Source: Microcoleus sp. N9_A2 (lineage in GTDB: Bacteria; Cyanobacteriota; Cyanobacteriia; Cyanobacteriales; Microcoleaceae). Taken from it: DNA of 26,604 bases. The notes beneath the pieces were generated by a model. It was not told where the DNA came from. It ran no database searches and saw only the letters and a list, made by a program, of their open reading frames with translations. The stretch is taken from assembly GCA_036701775.1 (NCBI GenBank), contig JAUBRH010000074.1; one strand, 5' to 3'. This document shows positions 2,308 to 18,861 of the stretch, piece by piece. How positions within the stretch are numbered: the stretch's first letter is position 1; each line of letters begins with the position of its first letter. A program made the translations under genes and the position numbers.

Positions 2308-4515
2308 TTAGAACGTGAAAGTAGTTCTCAGAGTACCAATAATGATGTCATCATTACGGTCATCTTGATTAGGATTTGTCACCCAAATCACGCCCGGAGT
2401 AACAGAAATGTTGTCCGAAAGCTGAAACTTGTAGAACCCTTCAACGTGATAGGAATCATCGTTGCGGAAGCTCCGCAAACTCCTCGAAGCTTCAAGTTTA
2501 TCCAAGTAAGGCTCACGACCTACCACCAGCCCTAGCAAGTTGCCTTCTTTCCCTAAATCAGGCAAAGCCAAGGTGACAGCGTAGTTCCAGATTTTCGCAT
2601 CGCCGATGCCGAGAATGCGGGCATTGGTTAAACCGGCCCAGCCACCAAGGATAAATCTCGGGCTCAGTCGCAACGAAGCCTGAGCTCCATAGGAGTTGGT
2701 GACAACTTTGCGAGCGCCGAAGCCCTCAAAGCCTTCGCTCAAACCGTTGAGAGAATTAGCCACGCCGGTACCAGTGAAACCGCCGAGATTGTCGATTCCA
2801 TTCCCCAAACCGTTGTCAAAGCCAAAGTTACCTCGGTTAAAGTAACCGTGGTTATAGTTGAAAGCAACTTGCAAGTTGCGTCCAGGGGTAAAAGTCAACT
2901 GACCCATCGCCGCGTAGTCGCCGTTCAACAAGCCTGCGCCCCTAGCCGGACTGGCTGGATTTGACGCCAAATAACCAAATGACAGAGAAGTTGGGCCGAA
3001 CACGCCGCCCAGTAAGCCCCTGCCGCCAAAGGCATAGTCAAAGCCAATACCTGCACCGCCACCTAAGCGATAAATGGGGTTCCGCTGTCCAAAGGCGCTC
3101 AATGACCCGTTGCCACCGTCAAAGTCTTCAAAGTAAGGGTTGACAGTCGGCAGAATGTCGTCCCACACGACAGCGTTGGCTGCAAGGGTAACGTTCAGTC
3201 GCTGACCGACGGGGAACTTGTACAGCAAGGTGTCGAGGGCAACAACGTTGTCGGTTCTGCCGACTACATTCCAAGTTTGAGTGCCTTCGCTGGTAGCACC
3301 AAGGTTGAAGTTGCGACCGTTGCCGACTTGAAGCCTGGTCAGCAGTAAGTCTCTGCCGGTGAAGCTCGTATTTAAATTTAGACGCACCCGTTGTTGGAAG
3401 ACAGCTTCGTTGTTGTCGCTGCCGACTCTTCTTTCGTCTCTGCCAAACAAGCCAACGTTCCCACCAAAGTCATCGCTGAGAGCGAAAATTGCTTCCCCAG
3501 TCAGCTTGGTAGTGGTGGAGAATTGGTTGGCTTCGAGTTCGGATGTCCGAGCTTCCAGAGCATCGACGCGACCGCGCAGGGTTGCCAGTTCCGCTGCAAA
3601 TTCTTCTTGGAGCCGTTGGAGGGCTGCCAAGTCATCTCTCGTAGCGAAGTTGCCAGTGCCGCCTCTAATTAGCTCGCTCACCTTGTCTAAGCAAGCATTT
3701 AAACCGGCTGCGAATTCGTAGCGGGTCATGGCCCGGTTGCCGCGGAAGGTGCCGTCGGGATAACCAGCAATACAGCCGTAGCGCTCGACTAGGGATTGCA
3801 ATGCTTGGAATGCCCAGTCTGTGGGCCGCACGTCGGAAAGTTGAGATACTGAGGTAACTTGACCTTCAGTTTCGCCGCCGGCAGCACCTTCGGTGCTGTA
3901 CTGGTTGAGCTGTTCTAATGTGGCGGCTGGGTTTTGCTCTTGTGGTGCGGCAGTTTGGGCTAAGGATTCAGCCGGTTGTGGCAAACTTTGTTCTGCCGAC
4001 TCTGCCACTGCCGGGGCTGGAGTTTCTAATTGAACTGCACCGATTTGCTCTGGGAGAGCGGTAGCTGCCGGGGCTGGAGTTTCTACTTGGGCTGCTGGGG
4101 CAGAATTTTCTACTGGTTGAGCGACTGTTGGCTCAACTGCGGCTAAAGATTCACTTGTAGGTTGTGATGCCGCTTGGGGATTTGCCTCAGCAGGGGCTGT
4201 GTTGGCTCCGACGATCGCACTTTCAGTTGCAGCAGTGGCCACATCTGCCATCGCTGCCTGGGTTGCGCTGCCAGCGACTTGGGAAATTTCTTCTACTGGC
4301 TCGGAGGCTGCAGTTGTTTCGGAAACAGCAGCTAAAGCATTTAGTTTCGCTTCGGAGGTTTCAGCGGTTTCAGCGCTTTCAGCTTTAGCGACAGCGGGAT
4401 TTAGCGCATCAGCAGGCTGCTGAGCGTCTGCTGCCATCGCGCTCGAAGAAACTACTAGGGTAGCTCCTAAGACTGCTGGGCTGATTAGTAAGTAACTCCA
4501 CAAAAATTTCGACAT
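2308..4515 (-). CDS. Outer-membrane porin with N-terminal SLH domain and OprB-like beta-barrel (cyanobacterial 'iron uptake porin' type)
   Basis: The protein has a signal peptide (MSKFLWSYLLISPAVLGATLVVSSSAMA), a long A/E/P/T-rich linker and an SLH motif (DVRPTDWAFQALQSLVERYGCIAGYPDGTFRGNRAMTRYEFAAGL). It continues with a coiled-coil segment, a Gly/aromatic-rich barrel and a C-terminal F. The ATG at 4515 has GAGG/GAGAG upstream, so it is preferred over the GTG at 4533. Confidence 0.88.
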   Translation of the reverse strand: MSKFLWSYLLISPAVLGATLVVSSSAMAADAQQPADALNPAVAKAESAETAETSEAKLNALAAVSETTAASEPVEEISQVAGSATQAAMADVATAATESAIVGANTAPAEANPQAASQPTSESLAAVEPTVAQPVENSAPAAQVETPAPAATALPEQIGAVQLETPAPAVAESAEQSLPQPAESLAQTAAPQEQNPAATLEQLNQYSTEGAAGGETEGQVTSVSQLSDVRPTDWAFQALQSLVERYGCIAGYPDGTFRGNRAMTRYEFAAGLNACLDKVSELIRGGTGNFATRDDLAALQRLQEEFAAELATLRGRVDALEARTSELEANQFSTTTKLTGEAIFALSDDFGGNVGLFGRDERRVGSDNNEAVFQQRVRLNLNTSFTGRDLLLTRLQVGNGRNFNLGATSEGTQTWNVVGRTDNVVALDTLLYKFPVGQRLNVTLAANAVVWDDILPTVNPYFEDFDGGNGSLSAFGQRNPIYRLGGGAGIGFDYAFGGRGLLGGVFGPTSLSFGYLASNPASPARGAGLLNGDYAAMGQLTFTPGRNLQVAFNYNHGYFNRGNFGFDNGLGNGIDNLGGFTGTGVANSLNGLSEGFEGFGARKVVTNSYGAQASLRLSPRFILGGWAGLTNARILGIGDAKIWNYAVTLALPDLGKEGNLLGLVVGREPYLDKLEASRSLRSFRNDDSYHVEGFYKFQLSDNISVTPGVIWVTNPNQDDRNDDIIIGTLRTTFTF

Positions 4516-4840
4516 ATTCACTCTCATCCTCACACCGATTACAGAGAAACTTTTTTAGTCTTCTATGTGGTCAGTCGTTGCTCCACTAGCATACTCTAAA
4601 AAGAGACCTAAAATTCACTTTTTCTTTTGATTCTTTCGGGCTGACCTAGTATATAGATGTGACTGATGGCTACAGAGAGCCTGTTTTTTTGCCTGTACTC
4701 AACGGCGTCAAAACCAGACCAGGCTTGGGCTGTCGATTGATTTTACTGATGACACTTGATAGCGCCCGATCGCCTATTTACTTTTTAGCACAGCACGCCC
4801 GACTCGTCTAGGCTGATTCGACTTTAACCGATACTTTTTT

Positions 4841-4857
4841 GCTAACATTTGCTAACA
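4841..4857. repeat. GCTAACA-ttt-GCTAACA direct heptamer pair
   Basis: Read directly from the sequence. Its reverse complement TGTTAGCAAATGT recurs at 5090-5102 (as TAGCAAATGTTAG) and 5107-5120. Confidence 0.6.
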
Positions 4858-5089
4858 AATACATATTGAGAGCTGATCTCAACCAAGGTGTATCAACTGA
4901 TGCCCGTAGAATTTTCTACAAGCTCTTATATTCTTGCGTTCAGCTTGGTTATCGCTTACAGCTATTAGCCAATCTGATTATTTGCTTGGATAATGTAGAG
5001 GCAACTTATTTATATAGCGGTTGCGTACTACCAAGGTTTTTCACCTAAATCTGAGTGGCTAAATTCATTCTATATGATATGAAAACCTC

Positions 5090-5120
5090 TAGCAAATGTT
5101 AGTGATTGTTAGCAAATGTC
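5090..5120. repeat. Two copies of TGTTAGCAAATGT-type motif, inverted relative to 4841-4857
   Basis: TAGCAAATGTTAG (5090-5102) and TGTTAGCAAATGTC (5107-5120). They lie immediately downstream of the HD-GYP gene stop at 5136. Confidence 0.6.
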
Positions 5121-5135
5121 AGAAAACTTTTAGTG

Positions 5136-6773
5136 TTAATCAACCTCCAAGCTGTGCCCGAGAACGCTAAAGACTTGGCGATGATCGAACAATTCTAACA
5201 AATCAGCGTTGATTTTGTTGTGAGCTGCTTCTTGCCGCAAAATTTTCATCGCTGCCTCTGTACGCAGGGCTCGCTTGTAGGGGCGATCGCCTGCTGTCAG
5301 GGCGTCGTAAATATCGGCGATCGTCATCAATTGCGCTTGAATTGGAATTTCTGACTTGTTTAGACCTCGCGGATAACCTGTGCCGTCGAGTTTTTCGTGA
5401 TGTCCGTAGGCAATGTCTGGAACATTTTTCAAATCCTTTGTCCAAGGAATTTGTTTCAGAAACTCGTAAGTGTGAGTTACGTGAAATTCTATTGCTGATC
5501 GTTCTTCCGGCGTCAGGTTGCCCCTCGACACCATCAATTGCACGATCTCGTCTTGGTTCAGCAGGGGTTTCTTTGCCCCATCTATATCTCTGTAAGTTTG
5601 TCGAGAAATTTCTCGCAGTTGAGCTAGCGGTTCTGCTGCCAAAATGTGAGGCTCGTTTGCCTCTAGCAGCACTTCCCAGTATTCTGCTAATCTGGTTTTC
5701 GCCTCTGCTAGCTTAGTGTCTAGCTGTTCGATTTCCTGGCATTGAGCGCACTCTGGCTCCTGGATCGGGTGTTGTCGGTAGGCTGAATGCTCCAGCAAGT
5801 ATTTATATTTAGACTGGACGCATTCCATTTCCATTGTCCGTTGAGCTAAGCCAAAGCGGTGGCGAATGATTTCTAGCTGTGCGGGGTAGAGCTTTTTCTG
5901 TTTGGTCAAAATTGCTTCGGGTACTCCAATTTTGCCAAAATCGTGCAGCAGGGCGGCGTAGCGAAGTTCTTGAATTTGGCGGTTGTTAAAGTAAATAGAG
6001 CGCAGTCCTCCGCTGCTGACGGTGTTTACTTCTTCTGAAAGGCTTACTGTGAGGGCTGCTACTCGTTCTGAATGGCCGTAGGTACAGGGGTCTCTGGCTT
6101 CTATGACTTGTACCGAGGCTTTGACGAAGCCCTCGAACAAATGTTCTATGCTGTCTTGGAGTTGATTGCGCTCGATCGAGATTGCTGCTTGAGAAGCGAG
6201 CGATCGAACTATCCTTTCTTCCCACTCCGAATACTGCTGCGTCGATTCCCAGGCATTGTCTGCTGTCAGCACCGTATCTGCCTTTGTTTTGCGGTTGATC
6301 AATTGCAGTACACCTATTGTCTCCCCCTGTCGGTTTTGCATCGGCAGTACCATTACCGAGCAGGTGCGGTAATTAATATCCCTGTCAAAACTGGTATCTA
6401 GCCGGTAGGGTACGCCCGAGGGTAAGTCGTAGGCATCAGACAGGTTCAAACTTTGACCTGTAATTGCCACGTATCCTGCCAAACTTTTGTCTGTCAGCGG
6501 CAGAGCAAACTCTTTAAACGACAGGCTCGGTTTAGAAGCGTTTTGGGCTACCTTGAACAGCAGCTTAGATGTTTCGTCGCTGTGATCTACTAAGTAAACG
6601 CTGCCAGCATCGCTGTAGGTAATTTCCCTACTTTTGGATAAAATTAAGTTTAACAAGTCGCTCAAATCTTGGGCGCTCGACAGAGCCGCGCCAATATCTA
6701 AAAGCTTTTCTATCAGATCGGTTTTTTCTGCTGCAGACTCGTTCTTGAACTCTGGCTTTTCAAATACGATCAT
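5136..6773 (-). CDS. GAF domain / HD-GYP domain protein (putative c-di-GMP phosphodiesterase or signalling protein)
   Basis: 545 aa. The N-terminal half looks like a GAF domain. The HD motif is LLHDFGKIGVP and the GYP motif is HHEKLDGTGYPRGL. Confidence 0.9.
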   Translation of the reverse strand: MIVFEKPEFKNESAAEKTDLIEKLLDIGAALSSAQDLSDLLNLILSKSREITYSDAGSVYLVDHSDETSKLLFKVAQNASKPSLSFKEFALPLTDKSLAGYVAITGQSLNLSDAYDLPSGVPYRLDTSFDRDINYRTCSVMVLPMQNRQGETIGVLQLINRKTKADTVLTADNAWESTQQYSEWEERIVRSLASQAAISIERNQLQDSIEHLFEGFVKASVQVIEARDPCTYGHSERVAALTVSLSEEVNTVSSGGLRSIYFNNRQIQELRYAALLHDFGKIGVPEAILTKQKKLYPAQLEIIRHRFGLAQRTMEMECVQSKYKYLLEHSAYRQHPIQEPECAQCQEIEQLDTKLAEAKTRLAEYWEVLLEANEPHILAAEPLAQLREISRQTYRDIDGAKKPLLNQDEIVQLMVSRGNLTPEERSAIEFHVTHTYEFLKQIPWTKDLKNVPDIAYGHHEKLDGTGYPRGLNKSEIPIQAQLMTIADIYDALTAGDRPYKRALRTEAAMKILRQEAAHNKINADLLELFDHRQVFSVLGHSLEVD

Positions 6774-9418: not shown

Positions 9419-9534
9419 CAGGAACTCACAGGCATCGCCCCTACAGAAAGCGGTTTTTTTTACAGGAATACTTCGTTACAGCCCGCCCCCACGGTTAAAA
9501 ACCCGGTTTTTTGCGTCTTGATGCGTAAGTCCTG
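9419..9534 (+). mobile_element. MITE-like element, copy A (degenerate left end)
   Basis: It shares the core aatacttcgttacagcccgc...aaaaacccggttt and the right terminus TGCGTAAGTCCT with copies at 15609-15712 and 18869-18978. It has no coding capacity. Confidence 0.55.
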
Positions 9535-10649: not shown

Positions 10650-11438
10650 TCAATCTCGCAATCCTCGATCGCGCAACCAAGCCTCTGCCCAAATTGTATC
10701 GGCTTCTGACAGCGGTGGTATGACTTCCCAGTTGCGATAATCTATCTTGAGGTCATAACTTGCTATGTCGTAAATTTGAGTGAATAATTCCTGCAAATTG
10801 ATTATAGGTTCGGTATCGCCCGATCGCAGCGGTAAAGGAAAGGCAGGCAGCGGGTTCTGCACGTTAAAAGCGTACAAATCTGCTCTGGGACGGCGATTTC
10901 CCCGACACACCAAAACGCTATAGTGGCTTTCAATGTCATTGCCAATAACTGGCATTTTTTGACCGCGCCGCAATAAATCTATTTCAATTAAATGAGTGCG
11001 ACTGGATAAAATTTCTTCTCGCTTTTCTTCGTACATTTGTCGTCCTTTTCCTGTGCGCTTATTGCTAGGCGAGAGGATTTCTATCAGGGTGATTAGTTCT
11101 TGGTTTCCTCTTTCTCTAATTTCTAAATAGCCTTCCCGAACCTGGTAGGGCATGGGAATATTTACTGTCAAGGGTTGTGTTGGTGGCGCTGCAACGGCTA
11201 CGTTTGATGTGATTAATTCGGTTGTAGTTCTTGGCTGAATTACGTTTACATCAGGAATGCCAATTGATAAATTGTCGTCAGCGGTTTCATACATTCTCAC
11301 TTCTACAGACACTAAATACTTAGGACGTAATTGCGGAGATAATAATCGGGCAATTTCAATAATTAGCCAGTGGTGTAGGGCAGGCCAGAGTTCGGGATGC
11401 TCTAAATACGGGTCCATACCGGGAAAGGGAGATGGCAT
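10650..11438 (-). CDS. DUF4058-like protein (possible PD-(D/E)xK / Uma2-like nuclease fold)
   Basis: The N-terminus MPSPFPGMDPYLEHPELWP is, as I recall, the hallmark of DUF4058. The segments IGIPDVNV ... YLEIRE ... LIEILSPSNK resemble the PD...E.K arrangement of Uma2/DUF820 endonucleases. Confidence 0.7.
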   Translation of the reverse strand: MPSPFPGMDPYLEHPELWPALHHWLIIEIARLLSPQLRPKYLVSVEVRMYETADDNLSIGIPDVNVIQPRTTTELITSNVAVAAPPTQPLTVNIPMPYQVREGYLEIRERGNQELITLIEILSPSNKRTGKGRQMYEEKREEILSSRTHLIEIDLLRRGQKMPVIGNDIESHYSVLVCRGNRRPRADLYAFNVQNPLPAFPLPLRSGDTEPIINLQELFTQIYDIASYDLKIDYRNWEVIPPLSEADTIWAEAWLRDRGLRD

Positions 11439-11591
11439 TGATGTGACTCCTTGACTTAAGTCTATTTACAGTTTAGCAATGTTGTTTGGGGAAAATTAGG
11501 GCCGATCGCACTTCCGGTAAAATAGAATAATTCCTATTTGTGGAAGGGCGATTCCCTAGGGGATAGCTCCGCTTCACGCACTTTCCAACAA

Positions 11592-11834
11592 TTAAACTTC
11601 GATCTGCAATTGTGTTTGAATTGGAACGCTGTTTTCATCCAACACAGACACCGCATTTACGAAAACAATTGTATGCGGGACTGCGGGCATTAAGCGGCGC
11701 AGTGCTTTGAGGTAAGATTCGGCATCGGGGCGGCGGCTGAAACGGGCGACTGTTAACCGCTGACAGTTGGGGAGGTGGCGAATTATGCACCAAGGTTGAA
11801 GTCGATCGCGATATGTCGGTTGTTTTGATATCAT
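11592..11834 (-). CDS. Small hypothetical protein (80 aa)
   Basis: GAAGGA lies 9 nt upstream of the ATG. The gene runs in the same direction as the DUF4058 gene and sits 153 bp upstream of it. The motif RDRLQPWCIIRHLPNCQRLTVARFSRRPDAESYLKALRRL resembles small conserved cyanobacterial proteins as I remember them. Confidence 0.55.
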   Translation of the reverse strand: MISKQPTYRDRLQPWCIIRHLPNCQRLTVARFSRRPDAESYLKALRRLMPAVPHTIVFVNAVSVLDENSVPIQTQLQIEV

Positions 11835-11931
11835 AGGAAAATCCTTCCCACTTTTGTGGGTGGTGAATGAAAGGCGATCGCTCTAGATTTCTCAGGTCAG
11901 GGGGCGATCGCTATTAATTGTATATTCATTA

Positions 11932-11951
11932 AATTACGAGTAGTCGTAATT
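11932..11951. promoter_or_regulatory. Candidate operator palindrome upstream of the XRE regulator
   Basis: AATTACGA-gtag-TCGTAATT is a perfect 8-bp inverted repeat ending 13 nt before the HTH start codon at 11964. Confidence 0.35.
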
Positions 11952-11963
11952 GTCAAGGGCGGA

Positions 11964-12176
11964 ATGGGACGAATTAGACTGCGAGTTCGAGAACTTGCTC
12001 AAGAGAAGGGTTGGACTCTTAGGGAAGTCTCCAACAGAACGGGTATTCCATATACTACGATCGCCACCTATGCCAGTTCTCCAGGTATGGCAACTGTTGA
12101 CTACACGGCTTTGGACAAGATGGCTCGTGCGTTCGATATTGCGATCGAAGATTTAGTCGAGATTTTGGAACAGTAA
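11964..12176 (+). CDS. XRE-family helix-turn-helix transcriptional regulator (70 aa)
   Basis: LRVRELAQEKGWTLREVSNRTGIPYTTIATYA is a canonical Cro/C1-type HTH. AAGGGCGGA precedes the ATG. Confidence 0.85.
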   Translation: MGRIRLRVRELAQEKGWTLREVSNRTGIPYTTIATYASSPGMATVDYTALDKMARAFDIAIEDLVEILEQ

Positions 12177-12296
12177 ACTGATTGTGCGTAAACGACGGCT
12201 CTTGCGTTAGCACTTTTTACACGATACTTGCGTATATTGGAATTTTCCGGCTGTAGACTAGAGTCAGGAGTTGTTCAGTTTGCCGGAGTTATATTA

Positions 12297-12794
12297 ATGC
12301 CAATTAATCGTCTGTCTGATATACAAGAGAACTTGGAAGATCTGCAAGAGCAATTAGGCGGCAAGCAGAAGGCTCTAAATTTAGCACCGCAAGAAGAAAA
12401 AATCCGAATTAAACAGCAAATTCGAGAGCTACGCAAGGAAATTAGGGAACAGGAAGAGGAGTATTGGCAGGTTCTCGATCGGCAAACGAAAACAGTGGAG
12501 ATTGCTGAACCGGAGGCTGAGCTTGAGATTATTGTTGCTGACATTGTCGAAGAAGTTGGGCAAATTGAAGTGCAGCGACAGTATCCCGATGAGGTGGTTC
12601 AGATTTTGCAGCAGATTCGGGACAAGCTGAACCAACCGGGACCGACAGCGGCCGCGAAACTCAAAGGCGTAATCTCCAGCATTCCGCCGTTTGTGGGAAT
12701 TTCCTACGAGGCTGAATTGGATACAGAGAATTTTTTACAGCAGCATTTCCCAACGTTTCGGAAATGGGCTAAGGTATTAGCAAAAAAGTCCTAG
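12297..12794 (+). CDS. Coiled-coil protein (165 aa), probable N-terminal module of the downstream STAND NTPase
   Basis: GGAG lies 8 nt before the ATG at 12297. The first ~85 aa are heptad-like and E/K/Q/R-rich (LEDLQEQLGGKQKAL...IRIKQQIRELRKEIREQEEEYW). The C-terminus contains a short hydrophobic segment, AAAKLKGVISSIPPFVGISYEAELD. The ORF ends 1 codon after an A_AAA_AAG heptamer. Confidence 0.7.
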   Translation: MPINRLSDIQENLEDLQEQLGGKQKALNLAPQEEKIRIKQQIRELRKEIREQEEEYWQVLDRQTKTVEIAEPEAELEIIVADIVEEVGQIEVQRQYPDEVVQILQQIRDKLNQPGPTAAAKLKGVISSIPPFVGISYEAELDTENFLQQHFPTFRKWAKVLAKKS

Positions 12795-12823
12795 ACCTGG
12801 AGGAAAAAACACCCAATCCAGGT
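12782..12823 (+). other. Putative -1 frameshift signal: slippery heptamer A_AAA_AAG plus downstream stem-loop
   Basis: The zero frame reads gcA AAA AAG tcc TAG. The -1 frame continues GTC CTA GAC ... into the NB-ARC ORF. A stem pairs ACCTGGA (12795-12801) with TCCAGGT (12817-12823), 6 nt after the heptamer. Confidence 0.45.
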
Positions 12824-12898
12824 TTCACAAGTTCTTACAAACTTTACGATATTCCCTCCGAACTTGGTTCCAAAAACTTTGTCGGGCGGGATGAAGAG

Positions 12899-15571
12899 AT
12901 GCAGCAATTGCACGGATTGTTGCAGGATGGGAGCCGCGTTGCGATCGCCGCTGCGTCGGGAATGGGCGGCATCGGCAAGACAGAATTGGCATGGCAATAT
13001 GCAAACTTTCACCGCGATTACAATACCTATTCAGCCGGGATTTGGTGGCTGTTTGTGCGGGAAATGGGTTTAGCGCCGCAGGTGTTGCAGAAATCGCTGC
13101 GAATGGGAATTCAGCCGCCGGATACTCTGGAAAATCTGGAGGAACGGTTGCAGTTTTGCTACGAAGAGTGGGCAAAAAAAACCTCTGGGAATGCTCTGCT
13201 GGTATTGGATGATGTCAGTGATTACCGGGCGGTGCAGTCGTTTTTGCCTAGAAATCCCCGGTTTAAGGTGTTGCTGACAGCGCGACAAATTGTGCCGCCG
13301 CCTGTTGGGTGTTTGCCGTTAAAAGTGTTGAAACCGGAGGCAGCGCTAAACTTGCTGCGACTGACGGCTGGGGATTTGCCGGGAAACAAACTCAGACGGA
13401 TTGATGCCCAGCTTGAAGATGCTCAAGCGCTTTGTCAGTGGTTGGATTATTTGCCTTTGGGCATTGAACTGGTGGGGCGCTATCTGTGGCGCAAGCGGGC
13501 GCTGTCCTTGGCAGAAATGCTGCAACGGTTGCAGAGTCAGCGATTGGAGGCGCGGGCATTGCAGGAGGCGGAAGCTGGGATGACGGCTAGGCGAGGAGTG
13601 GCAGCAGCCTTTGAGTTGAGTTGGGAGGAGTTGAAACCTCCCGCGCGGACGCTGGGGTGTCTGCTGAGCGTGTTTGCTCTGGCTCCGATTCCTTGGGAGT
13701 TGGTAGCCGACTGTTTTCCAGATTGGGATGAGGAGGATTTGGAGGATTGTCGGGATTACGAACTGCTGGAACAGAGTTTGCTGTCGCTGGTGGAGGATGA
13801 AACCTCAGATCCGGCTCAATCTGGGCTGGTGCAGGCACGCTATCAACTTCATGCTTTGATTCGGGAGTTTTTTGCGGCCAAATTGCAGGGACGCGCCGAT
13901 GCTGAGAATTTGCAGAGAAGTTTTGCGACGGTGCTGACAGCGGTGGCGAAGACGATTCCGCAGACTGTGACGCTGGAGGTGCAGGAACGGGTGAAAGAGG
14001 CGCTGCCCCATTTGGAGCTGGTGGCGGAGCAATGGTCGCATTTGCTGGAAGATAGTGATGCTACGTGGTCTTTTACAAGGTTAGGGGTGGTTGCCCAGGA
14101 ACAGAGTTTGTGGGCAGAGGCCCAGAAGTGGTTGAAAGCTTGCCTCCAGATGACAGAGAAACGCTGCGGAGCTGAACATCCTGAGACGGCAAAGAGTTTG
14201 AACAATCTTGCAGAGCTATACCGTGCAATGGGTCGCTACCCAGAGGCGGAACCCTTGTATGTGCGATCGCTCTCTATTGACGAGCAACAGCTCGGAGCCG
14301 ACCATCCCTATACGGCAAGTAGTTTGAACAATCTGGCAGTCCTGTACAATGCAATGGGTCGCTACGCGGAAGCGGAACCTTTGTATGTGCGATCACTCTC
14401 GATCTGCGAACAGCAGCTCGGAGCCGACCATCCCAATACGGCTCAGACTTTGAACAATCTGGCAGCCCTGTACGGTGCAATGGGACGCTACCCGGAGGCA
14501 GAACCCTTGTATGTGCGATCGATCGCGATCTGCAAGCAACAGCTCGGAGCCGACCATCCCGATACCGCAAGTAGTTTGAACAATCTGGCAGAGCTATACC
14601 GTGCAATGGGACGCTACCCGGAGGCAGAACCCCTGTATGTACGATCGCTTTCGATCCGTGAGCAACAGCTCGGAGCCGACCATCCCGATACCGCAAGTAG
14701 TTTGAACAATCTGGCAGCCCTGTACCATGCAATGGGTCGCTACGCGGAAGCGGAACCCTTGTATGTGCAATCGCTCTCGATCTGGGAGCAGCAGCTCGGA
14801 GTTGACCATCCCGATACCGCAAGTAGTTTGAATAATCTGGCATGGCTGTACAATGCAATGGGGCGCTACTCGGAGGCGGAACCCTTGTTAGTACGATCGC
14901 TCTCGATCTGCGAGCAACAGCTCGGAGCCGACCATCCCAATACGGCAACGAGTTTGAACAATCTGGCAGAGCTATACCGCGCAATGAGACGCTACTCGGA
15001 GGCGGAACCCTTGTTAGTACGATCGCTCTCGATCTGCGAGCAACAGCTCGGAGCCGGCCATCCCAAGACGGCAAGTAGTTTGAACAATCTGGCATTGCTG
15101 TACGAGTCAATGGGACGCTACCCGGAGGCAGAACCCCTGTATGTGCGAGCCCTCACGATTAACGAGCCGCAGCTCGGAGTTGACCATCCCGCTACGGCAA
15201 GTAGTTTGAATAATCTGGCAGAGCTATACCGTGCAATGGGGCGCTACTCGGAGGCGGAACCCTTGTTAGTACGATCGCTCTCTATCCATGAGCAACAGCT
15301 CGGAGCCGACCATCCCGATACCGCAAGTAGTTTGAACAATCTGGCAGGGCTGTACGATGCAATGGGTCGCTACCCGGAGGCAGAACCGCTTTACCTGAGA
15401 GCATTAGAAATCTTGTTTAACCGATTGGGAGAGAATCATCCCAACACCCAAAAAGTTTGGAGCAATTTCATTGATTTTCTCTGGGATGCGATATCAACGG
15501 GTCAAGACTCGCAACTTTCCCAGCATCCAATAACGCAAGCAATGCTTAAGCGACTTCGGGAGACGGAGTAG
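12899..15571 (+). CDS. STAND NTPase: NB-ARC domain followed by ten KLC-type TPR repeats. The coding frame is open upstream to 12773, so the true N-terminus probably lies upstream of this ATG.
   Basis: The P-loop is GMGGIGKTELA, Walker B is LLVLDDV, and LLTAR and YLPLGIELVG (GxPLA-like) are also present. These are followed by ten 42-aa TPR units of the form LNNLAxLYxAMGRYxEAEPLYVRSL. The conserved lead-in NFVGRDEE lies immediately upstream of the listed ATG. Confidence 0.9.
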   Translation: MQQLHGLLQDGSRVAIAAASGMGGIGKTELAWQYANFHRDYNTYSAGIWWLFVREMGLAPQVLQKSLRMGIQPPDTLENLEERLQFCYEEWAKKTSGNALLVLDDVSDYRAVQSFLPRNPRFKVLLTARQIVPPPVGCLPLKVLKPEAALNLLRLTAGDLPGNKLRRIDAQLEDAQALCQWLDYLPLGIELVGRYLWRKRALSLAEMLQRLQSQRLEARALQEAEAGMTARRGVAAAFELSWEELKPPARTLGCLLSVFALAPIPWELVADCFPDWDEEDLEDCRDYELLEQSLLSLVEDETSDPAQSGLVQARYQLHALIREFFAAKLQGRADAENLQRSFATVLTAVAKTIPQTVTLEVQERVKEALPHLELVAEQWSHLLEDSDATWSFTRLGVVAQEQSLWAEAQKWLKACLQMTEKRCGAEHPETAKSLNNLAELYRAMGRYPEAEPLYVRSLSIDEQQLGADHPYTASSLNNLAVLYNAMGRYAEAEPLYVRSLSICEQQLGADHPNTAQTLNNLAALYGAMGRYPEAEPLYVRSIAICKQQLGADHPDTASSLNNLAELYRAMGRYPEAEPLYVRSLSIREQQLGADHPDTASSLNNLAALYHAMGRYAEAEPLYVQSLSIWEQQLGVDHPDTASSLNNLAWLYNAMGRYSEAEPLLVRSLSICEQQLGADHPNTATSLNNLAELYRAMRRYSEAEPLLVRSLSICEQQLGAGHPKTASSLNNLALLYESMGRYPEAEPLYVRALTINEPQLGVDHPATASSLNNLAELYRAMGRYSEAEPLLVRSLSIHEQQLGADHPDTASSLNNLAGLYDAMGRYPEAEPLYLRALEILFNRLGENHPNTQKVWSNFIDFLWDAISTGQDSQLSQHPITQAMLKRLRETE
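14195..15454 (+). repeat. Ten tandem 126-bp coding repeats (42-aa TPR units) with very high internal identity
   Basis: The period of 126 nt was verified at 14195 and 14321. Units begin AGTTTGAACAATCTGGCA. Long stretches are identical between units. Confidence 0.9.
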
Positions 15572-15608: not shown

Positions 15609-15712
15609 AAACTTACGCATGGGGCCCAGAAATCGGGTTTTTTCAAGAATACTTCGTTACAGCCCGCAGATTTGGCAAAAAACCCGGTTTCTCTGACGAA
15701 GCGCATAAGTCT
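15609..15712 (+). mobile_element. MITE-like element, copy B
   Basis: The termini are ACTTACGCA ... GCGCATAAGT (inverted). The core aatacttcgttacagcccgcagatttggcaaaaaacccggttt matches copies A and C. Confidence 0.6.
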
Positions 15713-15752: not shown

Positions 15753-15815
15753 GTGGGGGCGGGTTTTTGAGATAGTCTATCTGTGTCAGAAAGGGTTGGA
15801 AAAACCCGCCCCCAC
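15753..15815. repeat. Perfect 16-bp inverted repeat GTGGGGGCGGGTTTTT / AAAAACCCGCCCCCAC with 31-nt loop
   Basis: Read directly from the sequence. It lies between the convergent NB-ARC and ubiD genes. No U-tract follows on either strand, so it is not a classic terminator. Confidence 0.7.
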
Positions 15816-17451: not shown

Positions 17452-18861
17452 ATGAAAAATCCCCGACGTTCGCCCGATCGATTCCGCCACAGCCGTAGTT
17501 CCCGCAGCCAGCAGTTTTATCAGTCCCAAGCTGTTAGCCAACAAGCTTTTCAGCCTCCATATCCGTTGAGTTGCGAAGGCGCGGAAAGTTCGAGTTCCCC
17601 AGAAACGGCCGTAAAGTGCGATCGGGAAATTGCGATTTTGCTGCTAGATGCAGAAAACTTGAAACTCGACATTAATGCGGAAAAGTTTTTAGCCAGTTTG
17701 TGCAGCTATCCCCTGCAAGTTAAGATTGCTTTTGCTAACTGGAAAAACCCCAGCACCGGTAAGCTGGATACTGAATTGTACGATCGCGGTTACGAACTAA
17801 TTCACGCTCCGGGCGGCGCTAACACCGCTGACGGTAAAATGATTGCCTTTGGTGCTGCTATTTTATACCGCTATCGGGATGTCCGAGAAGTTTTTGTTTG
17901 TTCCTCCGACGGTTTGTTAAATCACCTCTGCAATCAACTTCAAAATCAGGGATTGACTGTGTTTCGGGTGCGTAGTCAAAATGCTGTATTGTCTATAGAA
18001 AATCATCTGACTGGGGAGAGGAATCACTATTCTTGCAAAGAGGAAGTGGAACTCCCTACTTTTGCAGAACTGGCAAATAAAATTGCCGAGTTGCTGAAGG
18101 CAGAACACCAATCTATCGAGGAGCGGATAGCTTGGTTTTCTAGTATTACTCAACTTTTTCAAGAGCGCCGCGCTATCGAATTAACTTCTATAAATTCCAC
18201 CAATATAGAAGCATTCGCATCATCCCCAAAAGATATAACCTGCGAACCAAAAGAACCTGCAACTTCCGACGTTGTTGGCGCAAACATTGAGTACGAAAAA
18301 TTGCCAGAAACTGTCCCTGCTGATCCCGTGACGATCGATTCACTGGAAGTCTTAGAAAATATACTTGTAGAAATTATTGAATCAGAGATAAATAATTTCC
18401 CAAATAATGCTATTAATGTAGCTGAGCTTAAAAAAATATTTTTCATCCGATGTCAAGTTCAGGCCGATCATATAGTGAAAACTTTCTTGGTTGATTCCAG
18501 TTTAGTCAAATTTTTGAAATCGCGTCCTTCTGTATTTCAATTGACATCGAGCGGGAGCGAACATCACGTGAGGATAGTCCAAAAATCTTCGGATTCAAAC
18601 ACTTCTCCATCTGCCACACTGGAATCATCTTTAGCAAAAATTTTGATAGCTTTAACCGCTCAATCTCCAGGTGCTTACATTTCGACTATCCTAGTAGCAG
18701 GTGAATTTAACAAGCAATACGGTCAACCAATTACTAAAAAGCTGAAATCGCTGGATTTGGGCGAGAAATTTCTAGATTTTTTGCAGTCTTGTCAAACATT
18801 TAAAGTCAAGAAAGAGGGTAATGATTATCAAGTGGCGATCGCCCCTGGCTCATCTTTTTAA
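17452..18861 (+). CDS. NYN-domain (PIN-like RNase) protein with C-terminal OST-HTH/LOTUS-like domains
   Basis: The NYN core is IAILLLDAENL ... ANTADGKMI ... VFVCSSDGLL, with acidic residues present. The C-terminal segment FNKQYGQPITKKLKSLDLGEKFLDFLQSCQTFKV is typical of OST-HTH. The protein is a paralog of 25174-26604. Confidence 0.8.
   Translation: MKNPRRSPDRFRHSRSSRSQQFYQSQAVSQQAFQPPYPLSCEGAESSSSPETAVKCDREIAILLLDAENLKLDINAEKFLASLCSYPLQVKIAFANWKNPSTGKLDTELYDRGYELIHAPGGANTADGKMIAFGAAILYRYRDVREVFVCSSDGLLNHLCNQLQNQGLTVFRVRSQNAVLSIENHLTGERNHYSCKEEVELPTFAELANKIAELLKAEHQSIEERIAWFSSITQLFQERRAIELTSINSTNIEAFASSPKDITCEPKEPATSDVVGANIEYEKLPETVPADPVTIDSLEVLENILVEIIESEINNFPNNAINVAELKKIFFIRCQVQADHIVKTFLVDSSLVKFLKSRPSVFQLTSSGSEHHVRIVQKSSDSNTSPSATLESSLAKILIALTAQSPGAYISTILVAGEFNKQYGQPITKKLKSLDLGEKFLDFLQSCQTFKVKKEGNDYQVAIAPGSSF

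Follow-up and report, generated by a model that had tools for sequence, protein, structure and literature searches.

Outside of mobile elements, the bacterial cellular genes expressed through -1 frameshifting presumably form a short list, comprising dnaX, copA, csoS2 and cdd. In Escherichia coli dnaX (tau/gamma), the slippery heptamer A_AAA_AAG is accompanied by an upstream Shine-Dalgarno (SD)-like sequence and a downstream stem-loop, and the two products share their N-terminus (PMC3711429). In the IS3-family OrfA/OrfAB and phage G/GT pairs, a -1 slip on an A-rich heptamer yields a short open reading frame (ORF) product both alone and as the N-terminal domain of a long fusion, with the ratio of the products set by translation (PMC5009743). 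A comparable signal occurs in a 26,604-nt stretch of the genome of the oscillatorian cyanobacterium Microcoleus sp. N9_A2 (assembly GCA_036701775.1, contig JAUBRH010000074.1), the whole of which is referred to here as the window. The signal lies at the junction between a small ORF coding for a predicted coiled-coil (cc) module and a long ORF coding for the NB-ARC NTPase and TPR sensor of a signal transduction ATPase with numerous domains (STAND). The present analysis, which is entirely computational, indicates that the functional unit is probably an operon of an XRE regulator, the cc module and the NB-ARC/TPR body, in which the latter two are encoded in different frames and joined by a -1 ribosomal frameshift, with the adjacent DUF4058 and 80-aa ORF genes being independent of it.

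The locus shares with E. coli dnaX the heptamer itself, flanked at similar spacing by an SD-like element upstream and a predicted stem-loop downstream, and would likewise give two products with a common N-terminus; with the IS3 and G/GT pairs it shares a product ratio that would be set by translation. In dnaX, however, the shift truncates the product, as the -1 frame stops at once, whereas here it is the 0 frame that ends at once, and the shift would extend the product by more than 900 residues, in the manner of the IS3 and G/GT pairs; the dnaX gene family and organisms are also unrelated to the cc-STAND proteins. While the IS3 and G/GT shifts produce a transposase and a virion chaperone, respectively, the product here would be an NTPase-sensor resembling nucleotide-binding leucine-rich repeat (NLR) proteins, joined to an N-terminal module, and many different bodies occupy the downstream position in its relatives.

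Among the STAND proteins, the NTP-dependent conflict systems (Kaur, Burroughs, Iyer and Aravind; eLife 2020, 2021) are similar in their combination of NB-ARC with TPR_10/TPR_12 repeats, the EAD4, trypsin, TIR and SEFIR N-termini found in relatives, the TRADD-N-linked variants, the VMAP-C, GUN4 and FGS partners and their enrichment in filamentous cyanobacteria. Kaur et al. (2020) describe coiled-coil regions occupying the 'effector position' in these systems as scaffolding or multimerising modules. The cc module considered here differs in fitting no Pfam EAD, Death or TRADD model and in being attached, as it appears, translationally rather than genetically. Plant CC-NLRs (ZAR1, NRC, Sr35) and Apaf-1 have in common with it the fold of the nucleotide-binding oligomerisation domain (NOD) and the order of helical N-terminal domain, NB-ARC and repeat sensor, but the sensor here consists of TPRs rather than leucine-rich or WD40 repeats and the cc model has no significant similarity to the plant CC domains. 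The Avs/AVAST and bNACHT systems likewise combine a STAND NTPase, a repeat sensor and a variable N-module, whereas the present locus has only a generic TPR match in PADLOC and no enzymatic effector. Frameshifting, slippage and recoding are unmentioned in Kaur et al. (eLife 2020 and 2021), and frameshifting in these genes is likewise unmentioned in recoding surveys and reviews and in a 2026 STAND survey. A search of the literature on frameshifting in STAND, NLR or defence systems returned nothing relevant and no paper describing the junction device.

The cc/NB-ARC junction

The junction and the two ORFs that meet at it comprise the following features (coordinates are those of the window).

12297-12794, plus strand: cc module ORF of 165 aa; homologues are of 163 aa and start with MPINRL; no Pfam family
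12771-12774, plus strand: SD-like AAGG, 7 nt 5' of the heptamer, overlapping the -1-frame stop codon TAA at 12770-12772
12782-12788, plus strand: slippery heptamer A_AAA_AAG, phased in frame as X_XXY_YYZ, with a single codon between it and the 0-frame TAG at 12792-12794
12789-12898, plus strand: predicted trans-frame linker VLDLEEKTPNPGFTSSYKLYDIPSELGSKNFVGRDEE, in the -1 frame, without ATG, GTG or TTG
12793-12825, plus strand: predicted stem-loop with core ACCTGGA...TCCAGGT, beginning 5-7 nt 3' of the heptamer; minimum free energy -12.5 kcal/mol
12899-15571 from the first ATG, plus strand: NB-ARC NTPase and TPR sensor (Pfam NB-ARC 3e-12; 11 TPR_12/TPR_10 units)
14167-15387, plus strand: TPR tandem array with a unit of 126 nt (42 aa), 9.7 copies, 84% identity (TRF)

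The cc ORF ends in ...GTA TTA GCA AAA AAG TCC TAG, which reads as GC-A_AAA_AAG-TCC-TAG, with the heptamer and stop codon spanning 12782-12794. The NB-ARC frame is -1 relative to that of cc. It is closed by the TAA at 12770-12772 and open from 12773, such that the -1 frame opens 9 nt 5' of the heptamer and the 0 frame closes 3 nt 3' of it. The heptamer is phased as in the classical X_XXY_YYZ of E. coli dnaX and is located in the 0 frame within the overlap of the two ORFs. Among the 23 Lys-Lys sites in window ORFs of at least 150 codons, the junction site is the only one encoded by an in-frame A_AAA_AAG. Downstream of the heptamer the -1 frame contains 929 open codons, with the first NTG codon 39 codons on and no ATG, GTG or TTG before 12899. 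A -1 slip at the heptamer would thus produce ...LAKK-VLDLEE... and a cc-NB-ARC-TPR protein of 1,091 aa.

Several properties of the translated linker suggest 12782, upstream of the ATG annotated at 12899, as the point of entry into the NB-ARC coding frame. The linker encodes the conserved pre-P-loop motif LYDIPSELGSKNFVGR in the -1 frame, which upstream of the Met reads ...KKVLDLEEKTPNPGFTSSYKLYDIPSELGSKNFVGRDEE, and 'FVGRxxEL' is the segment which precedes the P-loop in this class of NTPases. When the protein is extended upstream, a Pfam AAA_16 match begins at FVGR, while the NB-ARC match begins three residues before the Met and its E-value improves from 3e-12 to 2e-13. In the AlphaFold model the first NOD helix extends from residue 37, with the Met at position 40. 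In its first half the spacer forms a variable linker that the model shows as disordered, with a predicted local distance difference test (pLDDT) score below 50 for residues 1-18. The shifted frame has no start codon of its own ahead of 12899, and its product is conserved as protein.

A preliminary description, made from the letters of the window, had assigned a 'non-enzymatic coiled-coil N-module' to a gene of its own. The N-module is retained here but its separation is not, as the junction signal joins cc to NB-ARC; since the predicted frameshift joins the two ORFs, cc would be the true N-terminal domain of the STAND. The start assigned to cc, TTG 12228, is replaced by ATG 12297, the conserved start according to the 163-aa homologues. 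Promoter and terminator scans from XRE to NB-ARC gave chance-level matches only, with no terminator between cc and NB-ARC, and no Rfam family matches the window or the junction.

Conservation of the junction in Microcoleus

The same locus was identified in 13 species-level Microcoleus/Oscillatoriales genomes, one further isolate and eight metagenomic contigs. The heptamer occurs at the end of cc in all 15 genome loci (the window and L001-L014), and the A6G run is identical in all 22 Microcoleus-type junctions, which derive from independent isolates and metagenomes. The alignment of junctions was restricted to 21 gap-free sequences including the window, with the exclusion of L009, where the contig ends just after the cc stop codon, and L019, which has a small deletion in the linker. 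All 21 retain the heptamer, the 0-frame stop one codon on, an unbroken -1 frame in which no stop codon ever arises and the first ATG at +39 codons. Within the 59 nt before this ATG, nine synonymous and three non-synonymous variants were counted in the NB-ARC frame (nine of the 12 being at third codon positions), as opposed to ratios of 0:11 and 2:9 in the other two frames. As the variation is of the synonymous type only in the NB-ARC frame, the stretch evolves as coding sequence in a frame which has no start codon.

One metagenomic Microcoleus-type locus (L015, 4490-5216) has a different arrangement. Its linker, ..NFVGRDEEM, leads not into NB-ARC but into a TRADD-N-like segment plus a second cc module, with UbiD close behind, and it appears to represent a rearranged or deleted allele.

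Recurrence of the signal in the cc family

A full HMMER scan grouped the cc family into 221 representative clusters at 50% identity. Most members are stand-alone proteins of ~165 aa, while others form the very C-terminal end of longer proteins (TRADD-N, SNF2 helicase, Roc-COR GTPase, another STAND) and a few the in-frame N-terminus of long STANDs, namely P0362 (1,315 aa, with TPRs) and P0309 (1,169 aa). Judging from these sequence contexts, cc behaves as an adaptor-like module, occurring by itself, as the C-terminal part of other proteins and as the N-terminal part of STANDs. Some cc alleles (387 aa) are fused to an additional N-terminal TRADD-like_N domain. A Lys-Lys pair occurs within the last eight residues of 42 of the 49 aligned cc representatives, 28 of which end exactly in KK.

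A metagenome scan with a query alignment of ten sequences recovered 49 cc loci of 92-38% identity, and 43 of these end in N-A_AAA_AAG (or A_AAA_AAA/C/T) with a stop codon 0-9 nt on. By their flanking sequences the 43 signal-bearing loci form 24 clusters, which are homologous and hence not fully independent, so that counts based on them somewhat overstate independence. In the 43 loci the codon before the heptamer is GCA, CCA, GTA, CTA, TCA or ACA, always with a final A, and upstream of the cc stop codon the -1 frame reaches back only 13-88 nt before it is closed. The +1 frame is not open, the downstream ORF being always in -1 and never in +1. It extends for tens to nearly 900 codons, reaching several hundred where the contig is long enough and ending after 35-90 in a few cases. 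Its products include NB-ARC-TPR, NB-ARC+DUF7779, NACHT, nSTAND3/4, NPHP3_N/nSTAND1, VMAP-C, GUN4, TPR-only and transmembrane (TM)+PPC proteins. A scan of viral contigs revealed no cc relatives.

In several relatives the P-loop is encoded upstream of any usable start codon. It is found at residue 61 in L057-60 and residue 89 in Anabaena UHCC 0451, with the first NTG codons at residues 65 and 185, respectively. In L041 and L036 it likewise precedes the first usable start, the first ATG occurring at residues 346 and 275, and in L022 and L029, where it again precedes the first usable start, the -1 ORF is devoid of ATG codons. Since the P-loop precedes the first start codon, a functional NTPase could not be produced without the shift in any of these loci.

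Natural in-frame fusions are also present. In L046 and L047, which derive from two assemblies (97-kb and 187-kb contigs), the junction, at about 4460-4500, reads GCA AAA AAA GCT CTA GCC..., with one extra base (A7), and cc-NACHT-TM is a single ORF of 730 aa joined exactly at ...AKK. The close homologues in L024, L026, L027, L034 and Crinalium plasmid pCRI9333.05 instead contain GCA AAA AAG TYN TAG CCC... and would require a -1 shift to produce the equivalent protein. This difference of one base in the A run implies that the in-frame and frameshift-requiring states interconvert in evolution.

The junction also occurs on plasmids of named strains. In Crinalium epipsammum PCC 9333 (L064, pCRI9333.05, 3230-5565) cc is joined to NACHT via GCA AAA AAG TTG TAG, while in Nostoc sp. 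C057 (L065, p057_E, 5055-6448) it is joined to TM+FGE-sulfatase via CTA AAA AAA AAG TAA. RefSeq splits each of them into a pair of genes and places the downstream start 168-198 nt beyond the stop codon of cc. Both strains are culturable and would be convenient experimental models. Many Nostocales NB-ARC/TPR relatives (for example P0169, P0177, P0211 and P0217) are labelled 'partial' by NCBI despite being located on contigs of 0.2-1 Mb, and may represent further unrecognised recoding or split genes.

Putative stimulatory elements and the probable mode of slippage

The AAGG 7 nt 5' of the heptamer and the predicted hairpin that begins 5-7 nt 3' of it correspond to the pair of stimulators expected at a dnaX-type site. 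Across the family, an SD-like 4-mer is located 6-18 nt 5' of the heptamer in 18 of the 24 clusters, compared to 17% of control positions (binomial p=9e-10). For the 48 nt that follow the heptamer, folding at -11 kcal/mol or less is predicted in 12 of the 24 clusters, compared to 13.5% of 960 control windows (Mann-Whitney p=7e-4), with z-scores below -2 against dinucleotide shuffles in eight clusters. The stems of the different clusters begin 2-7 nt after the heptamer and are unrelated in sequence. As covariation is lacking within Microcoleus, the case for the hairpin is based on this recurrence across lineages.

A number of observations weigh against the proposed ribosomal frameshift. Six of the 24 clusters have no SD-like motif and approximately half have no strong hairpin, while that of the window (-12.5 kcal/mol, z=-1.9) is only marginally better than its shuffles, 4.7% of which equal it. 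The Microcoleus hairpin varies little, and its few disruptive and absent compensatory changes provide no covariation. The slipperiness of AAG in E. coli stems from the lack of a tRNA-Lys(CUU), a rationale which may not apply to Microcoleus. The ATG at 12899 could additionally give rise to an N-terminally clipped protein, and the clusters counted above share ancestry. Finally, A9 runs occur in five clusters (L035, L036, L048/54, L061 and Anabaena UHCC 0451) and A9G in Nostoc C057, all of them without SD-like element and hairpin, and because of this double absence these loci may rely on transcriptional slippage instead.

As a general explanation, transcriptional slippage would entail the addition of one A by RNA polymerase on the A run in some transcripts, with the same fusion being translated from the edited mRNA. 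Besides the A9 and A9G clusters without SD-like motif and hairpin, the fused allele of L046, which differs by one extra base in the run, would be in keeping with it, and slippage on A9 is known for Thermus dnaX (quoted in PMC3711429). The window and most clusters, however, contain only A6. Runs of this length are too short for efficient slippage by bacterial RNA polymerase. Transcription, moreover, has no need of the G that is invariant at position 7, of strict X_XXY_YYZ phasing or of the enriched SD-like motifs and hairpins, all of which are ribosomal signals, and slippage of the polymerase is thus an unlikely source of the fusion.

The NB-ARC/TPR body, its relatives and the cc module

The ATPase motifs are intact in the translated sequence (P-loop GMGGIGKT, Walker B LLVLDD, KVLLTAR and the LPLG in YLPLGIE), and the P-loop, Walker B, GxP/LPLG and profile match together place the protein in the NB-ARC clade. 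An AlphaFold2 model of the NOD (pLDDT 79) retrieved Apaf-1 from the Protein Data Bank (PDB) with Foldseek (1z6t, E=5.9e-13, TMq 0.60), with further matches to NRC4, NRC3, ZAR1 and CED-4 structures. The predicted fold is therefore the nucleotide-binding, helical and winged-helix domain arrangement of Apaf-1, CED-4 and plant NLRs. The TPR copy number is polymorphic between strains and varies in steps of 42 aa, with most -1 ORF lengths near 723, 762, 803, 845, 887 and 929 aa, ~42 aa apart.

Relatives of the NB-ARC at ~45-57% identity occur in Pegethrix, Nostoc, Calothrix, Moorena and others, with the linker motif inside the ORF. In Pegethrix, Nostoc and other relatives ..LYDIPADLGSENFVGRE.. is internal to the ORFs, a further example among distant homologues being ...LAPLYDIPADLGSENFVGREDDL.... 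The N-modules which precede the motif in distant homologues are a short Gly/Asn-rich peptide, a trypsin-like peptidase, SEFIR/TIR and EAD4. As distant homologues carry the motif behind N-modules, the architecture of the clade is N-module-linker-NB-ARC-TPR, and on the sequence evidence this architecture is reconstituted in Microcoleus by the -1 shift only.

These relatives bear on the possibility that the locus consists of two separate genes, with cc acting in trans only, the NB-ARC/TPR protein being translated from ATG 12899 or a non-canonical codon and the spacer serving as a coupling or regulatory RNA. Gene callers and NCBI annotate the locus in this manner, the ATG is present, P0164 and P0207 begin at MKFVGRDEEL without an N-module, and in Stenomitos the start chosen by the gene caller, which is not ATG, GTG or TTG, overlaps the cc gene. 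This arrangement is nevertheless improbable, given that it accounts neither for the P-loops upstream of any ATG, GTG or TTG in relatives nor for the downstream frame being always -1, the invariant phasing of the heptamer, the synonymous-type variation upstream of the ATG or the fusions joined exactly at AKK.

The cc protein is all-helical in its AlphaFold2 model (pLDDT 82), with a long hairpin (helices 2-29 and 32-66), five shorter helices and a PPFVGISYEAELDTE segment that is conserved and modelled with low confidence. The protein gave no Pfam match at E<=0.01, including the EAD1-11, bDLD, TRADD-N and Death models, and neither it nor the 80-aa ORF belongs to a family in PADLOC, NCBIfam or Pfam. 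Foldseek comparison of the model with the PDB and BFVD gave nothing below E=0.4, a PDB profile search was negative and the best match to PDB folds including plant CC domains had an E-value above 1. Apolipoproteins, CdvB and YaxB were rejected as look-alikes, these being weak helical Foldseek matches attributable to composition and topology noise.

The earlier identification of the plus-strand gene as a STAND of the conflict-system type is supported by the similarity of its NOD to Apaf-1, NLRs and CED-4, by the TIR/SEFIR, trypsin and EAD4 N-termini of its closest relatives outside Microcoleus, by the TRADD-N-cc alleles and by the hypervariability of the locus. The assertion that no named defence system is involved also holds, as PADLOC (Avs1-5, bNACHT and others) gave no system-specific match, only the generic 'TPR' model (1.6e-14) and sub-threshold coiled-coil noise (LmuB, PbeC; E about 5e-4). 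The locus is thus a member of the NB-ARC STAND clade and a relative of the NTP-dependent conflict systems, and not a named anti-phage system.

Neighbouring genes on the minus strand

All five ORFs of the preliminary description were recovered in the ORF map at the coordinates it gave, with domains assigned by profile searches, and Pfam supports its DUF4058, HTH_26, NB-ARC and 11 TPR_12 assignments. Two of the five genes are divergent from the proposed operon.

10650-11438, minus strand: DUF4058 gene (PF13267, Pfam E=1e-107, full length), a neighbour whose membership in the system is not supported
11592-11834, minus strand: 80-aa ORF without Pfam, NCBIfam or PADLOC match, likewise a neighbour whose membership in the system is not supported

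It had been proposed that the five genes form a single defence system, with the nuclease-like DUF4058 as effector to the STAND sensor and the 80-aa ORF as an accessory. In every Microcoleus-type locus with a contig extending to that side the genes lie next to each other, the two gene sets both evolve fast, and DUF4058 has invariant residues (D63, E106, E120, K127 and an E-I/L-L-S-P-x-N-K block) of which IPD...E-I/L-L-S-P-x-N-K would be compatible with a PD-(D/E)xK site; it has no sequence relative in the PDB. Outside of the orthologous Microcoleus site, however, DUF4058, the 80-aa ORF and this XRE are missing from the vicinity of every cc-STAND locus. Among plasmid records, homologues of the 80-aa ORF occur on 13 (cyanobacterial) and of DUF4058 on seven, with both present on one plasmid only, 38 kb apart. 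The six plasmid contexts inspected (three per gene) contain no STAND, the neighbours being DISARM, helicase and HTH genes for the 80-aa ORF and Uma2-endonuclease and toxin-antitoxin genes for DUF4058.

Two allele classes of DUF4058 (65-68% and 81-99% identity) are found at the Microcoleus locus, in one or two copies, and the NB-ARC half likewise falls into two classes (about 61% and 86-92%). All four combinations of these classes occur and the copy number of DUF4058 varies independently. The preliminary description had itself named conserved synteny without co-variation as the observation that would speak against a partnership, and because all four combinations occur DUF4058 is refuted as a partner by this standard. 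Absent from distant cc-STAND loci, unlinked on the inspected plasmids and without allele co-variation, DUF4058 and the 80-aa ORF are thus not retained as components. With the STAND already provided with an N-terminal module of its own by the predicted frameshift, a five-gene system is very improbable.

Both DUF4058 classes are present in tandem in L012 (2912-4523) and L014 (2074-3685), with 95-99% and 67-68% identity to the window copy, which suggests that the apparent alleles are old paralogues that have been differentially lost.

The XRE regulator and its predicted operator

Membership in the operon is more plausible for the XRE gene than for DUF4058 or the 80-aa ORF. The XRE gene is preceded by a palindrome, and the two features are located as follows.

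11932-11951, plus strand: operator-like palindrome AATTACGA-gtag-TCGTAATT, read from the sequence, 12 nt 5' of the XRE ATG
11964-12176, plus strand: 70-aa XRE/Cro-type helix-turn-helix (HTH) regulator, allele 'A' (Pfam HTH_26 1.4e-8, HTH_3 6e-6)

The palindrome (AATTACGA-N4-TCGTAATT, 8+8) had been reported at the start of the gene; its presence is upheld, while its position is corrected to 11932-11951, 12 nt upstream of the ATG. The exact palindrome of the window is found again only ahead of XRE genes with at least 97% identity to the window allele, and different palindromes occupy the same position upstream of other XRE alleles, including AGCTATG-AG-CATAGCT for allele B and GATACG-TT-CGTATC for allele C. 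With an HTH domain and a palindrome in its own promoter, the protein is a predicted XRE/Cro repressor with a cognate operator.

Microcoleus genomes contain between one and five tandem 70-aa XRE genes with different specificity alleles (L001 8776-9687; L004 4543-5684; L011 4542-5683; window 11932-12176). The arrays have a period of 233 bp, with spacers of 20-26 nt, mostly 23 nt. At least five alleles were distinguished, which differ mainly in the HTH recognition helix and whose order varies between genomes, and the palindrome upstream of the first copy fits the allele of that copy. From its sequence, the array looks like a cassette array of repressor specificities.

Hypervariability of the locus

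The housekeeping flanks were confirmed by profile searches of the window, the left flank comprising psbD, UPF0367 and the ABC ATPase and the right flank UbiD and NYN. The block between the ABC ATPase and UbiD, which had been viewed as accessory, is not so within the genus, as it is present at the same site in every Microcoleus-type locus that reaches both flanks. No integrase or transposase was found at the locus, which does not have the character of a mobile or accessory island. The flanking proteins are 94-100% identical across genomes, whereas identities in the block are 70-92% for cc, 61-92% for the NB-ARC half, 68-100% for XRE and 65-99% for DUF4058. With near-identical flanks and variable genes between them, the locus in this genus is fixed but hypervariable rather than a presence/absence island. 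In farther relatives, cc-STAND cassettes are found in other chromosomal contexts and on mobilizable plasmids, also beside toxin-antitoxin genes. The junction, conserved amid varying cc and NB-ARC alleles and TPR numbers, may be a recombination joint at which sensors and outputs are shuffled.

That the split instead stems from pseudogene decay, from an error in sequencing the homopolymer or from DNA-level phase variation of the A tract is scarcely credible, for although it falls in a homopolymer and the L046/47 lineage has an in-frame A7, A6G is present in all 22 Microcoleus-type junctions and in 23 other clusters, no stop codon ever arises in the -1 frame, the ATPase motifs are intact and A6 is too short for efficient slipped-strand phase variation. 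Sequencing error and artefactual fusion were also discounted because of the heptamer at the end of cc in 15/15 genome loci and 43/49 metagenomic loci.

Proposed mechanism and implications

Starting from the signal, its conservation, the coding constraint on the linker without a start codon and the natural in-frame fusions, all of which are observed, the following scheme can be put forward for the ribosomal frameshift. Most ribosomes on the cc ORF would stop at the TAG at 12792 and release a free helical cc protein of 165 aa. A fraction would slip back by one base at A_AAA_AAG (12782-12788), probably aided by AAGG, the stem-loop and the nearby stop codon, and would read ..LAKK-VLDLEE..LYDIPSELGSKNFVGRDEEMQQL.. 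to produce the 1,091-aa cc-NB-ARC-TPR protein. The shift is presumed to be ribosomal and would set a fixed ratio of free cc to cc-STAND. Sensing of a ligand by the hypervariable TPRs may lead to oligomerisation of the NOD and clustering of the cc domains, and homotypic helical association of clustered and free cc, as a scaffold or polymer or as a membrane-active assembly, may constitute the output. The XRE protein would repress the operon via its allele-specific palindrome. A role in conflict or defence is suggested by the Apaf-1- and NLR-like NOD fold, the TRADD-N-cc variants, the hypervariability between flanks of 97-100% identity and the copies on plasmids and beside toxin-antitoxin genes, although the lack of a PADLOC match counts against a defence function.

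A broader proposal is advanced tentatively, and is less likely than not to hold in full. In filamentous cyanobacteria and some other bacteria, cc followed by A_AAA_AAG and a stop codon may be a portable 'recoding cassette', which provides from one mRNA a free helical subunit in fixed ratio to the same subunit on an NLR-like sensor (NB-ARC, NACHT, nSTAND and VMAP, among others), and the activated oligomer may nucleate a filament or membrane pore that executes cell death. It would then correspond, hard-wired at the level of translation, to NLR-ASC or CC-NLR resistosome signalling, and many cyanobacterial STAND genes would be wrongly annotated as N-terminally truncated or 'partial'. For STANDs without an enzymatic effector, a fixed ratio between free and tethered N-module suggests nucleated assembly as the output.

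If the frameshift takes place as proposed, a large and phylogenetically broad family would be added to dnaX, copA, csoS2 and cdd, and it would be the first -1 frameshift in NLR-like immune or cell-death machinery. For annotation, pairs of a 'small hypothetical protein' and a 'TPR protein' would then be one gene with two products.

Repeats and other features of the window

Two copies of a miniature inverted-repeat transposable element had been noted on either side of the wider region. They share an identical 21-nt core (GAATACTTCGTTACAGCCCGC, at 9466-9486 and 15647-15667), of which there were 0 such matches in shuffles, and a hairpin layout, but their overall likeness is only about 60-70%. The cores are flanked by inverted arms of A/T runs, and a third hairpin of similar design is located at 15753-15815. 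HIP1 sites (GCGATCGC) are dense in the intergenic regions. Beside UbiD (98-99% identity), the NYN-domain protein encoded at 17452-18861 and its orthologues in L001-L014 are fast-evolving (55-75%), and the NYN-domain protein of L001 has an N-terminal Zn_ribbon_InsA match.

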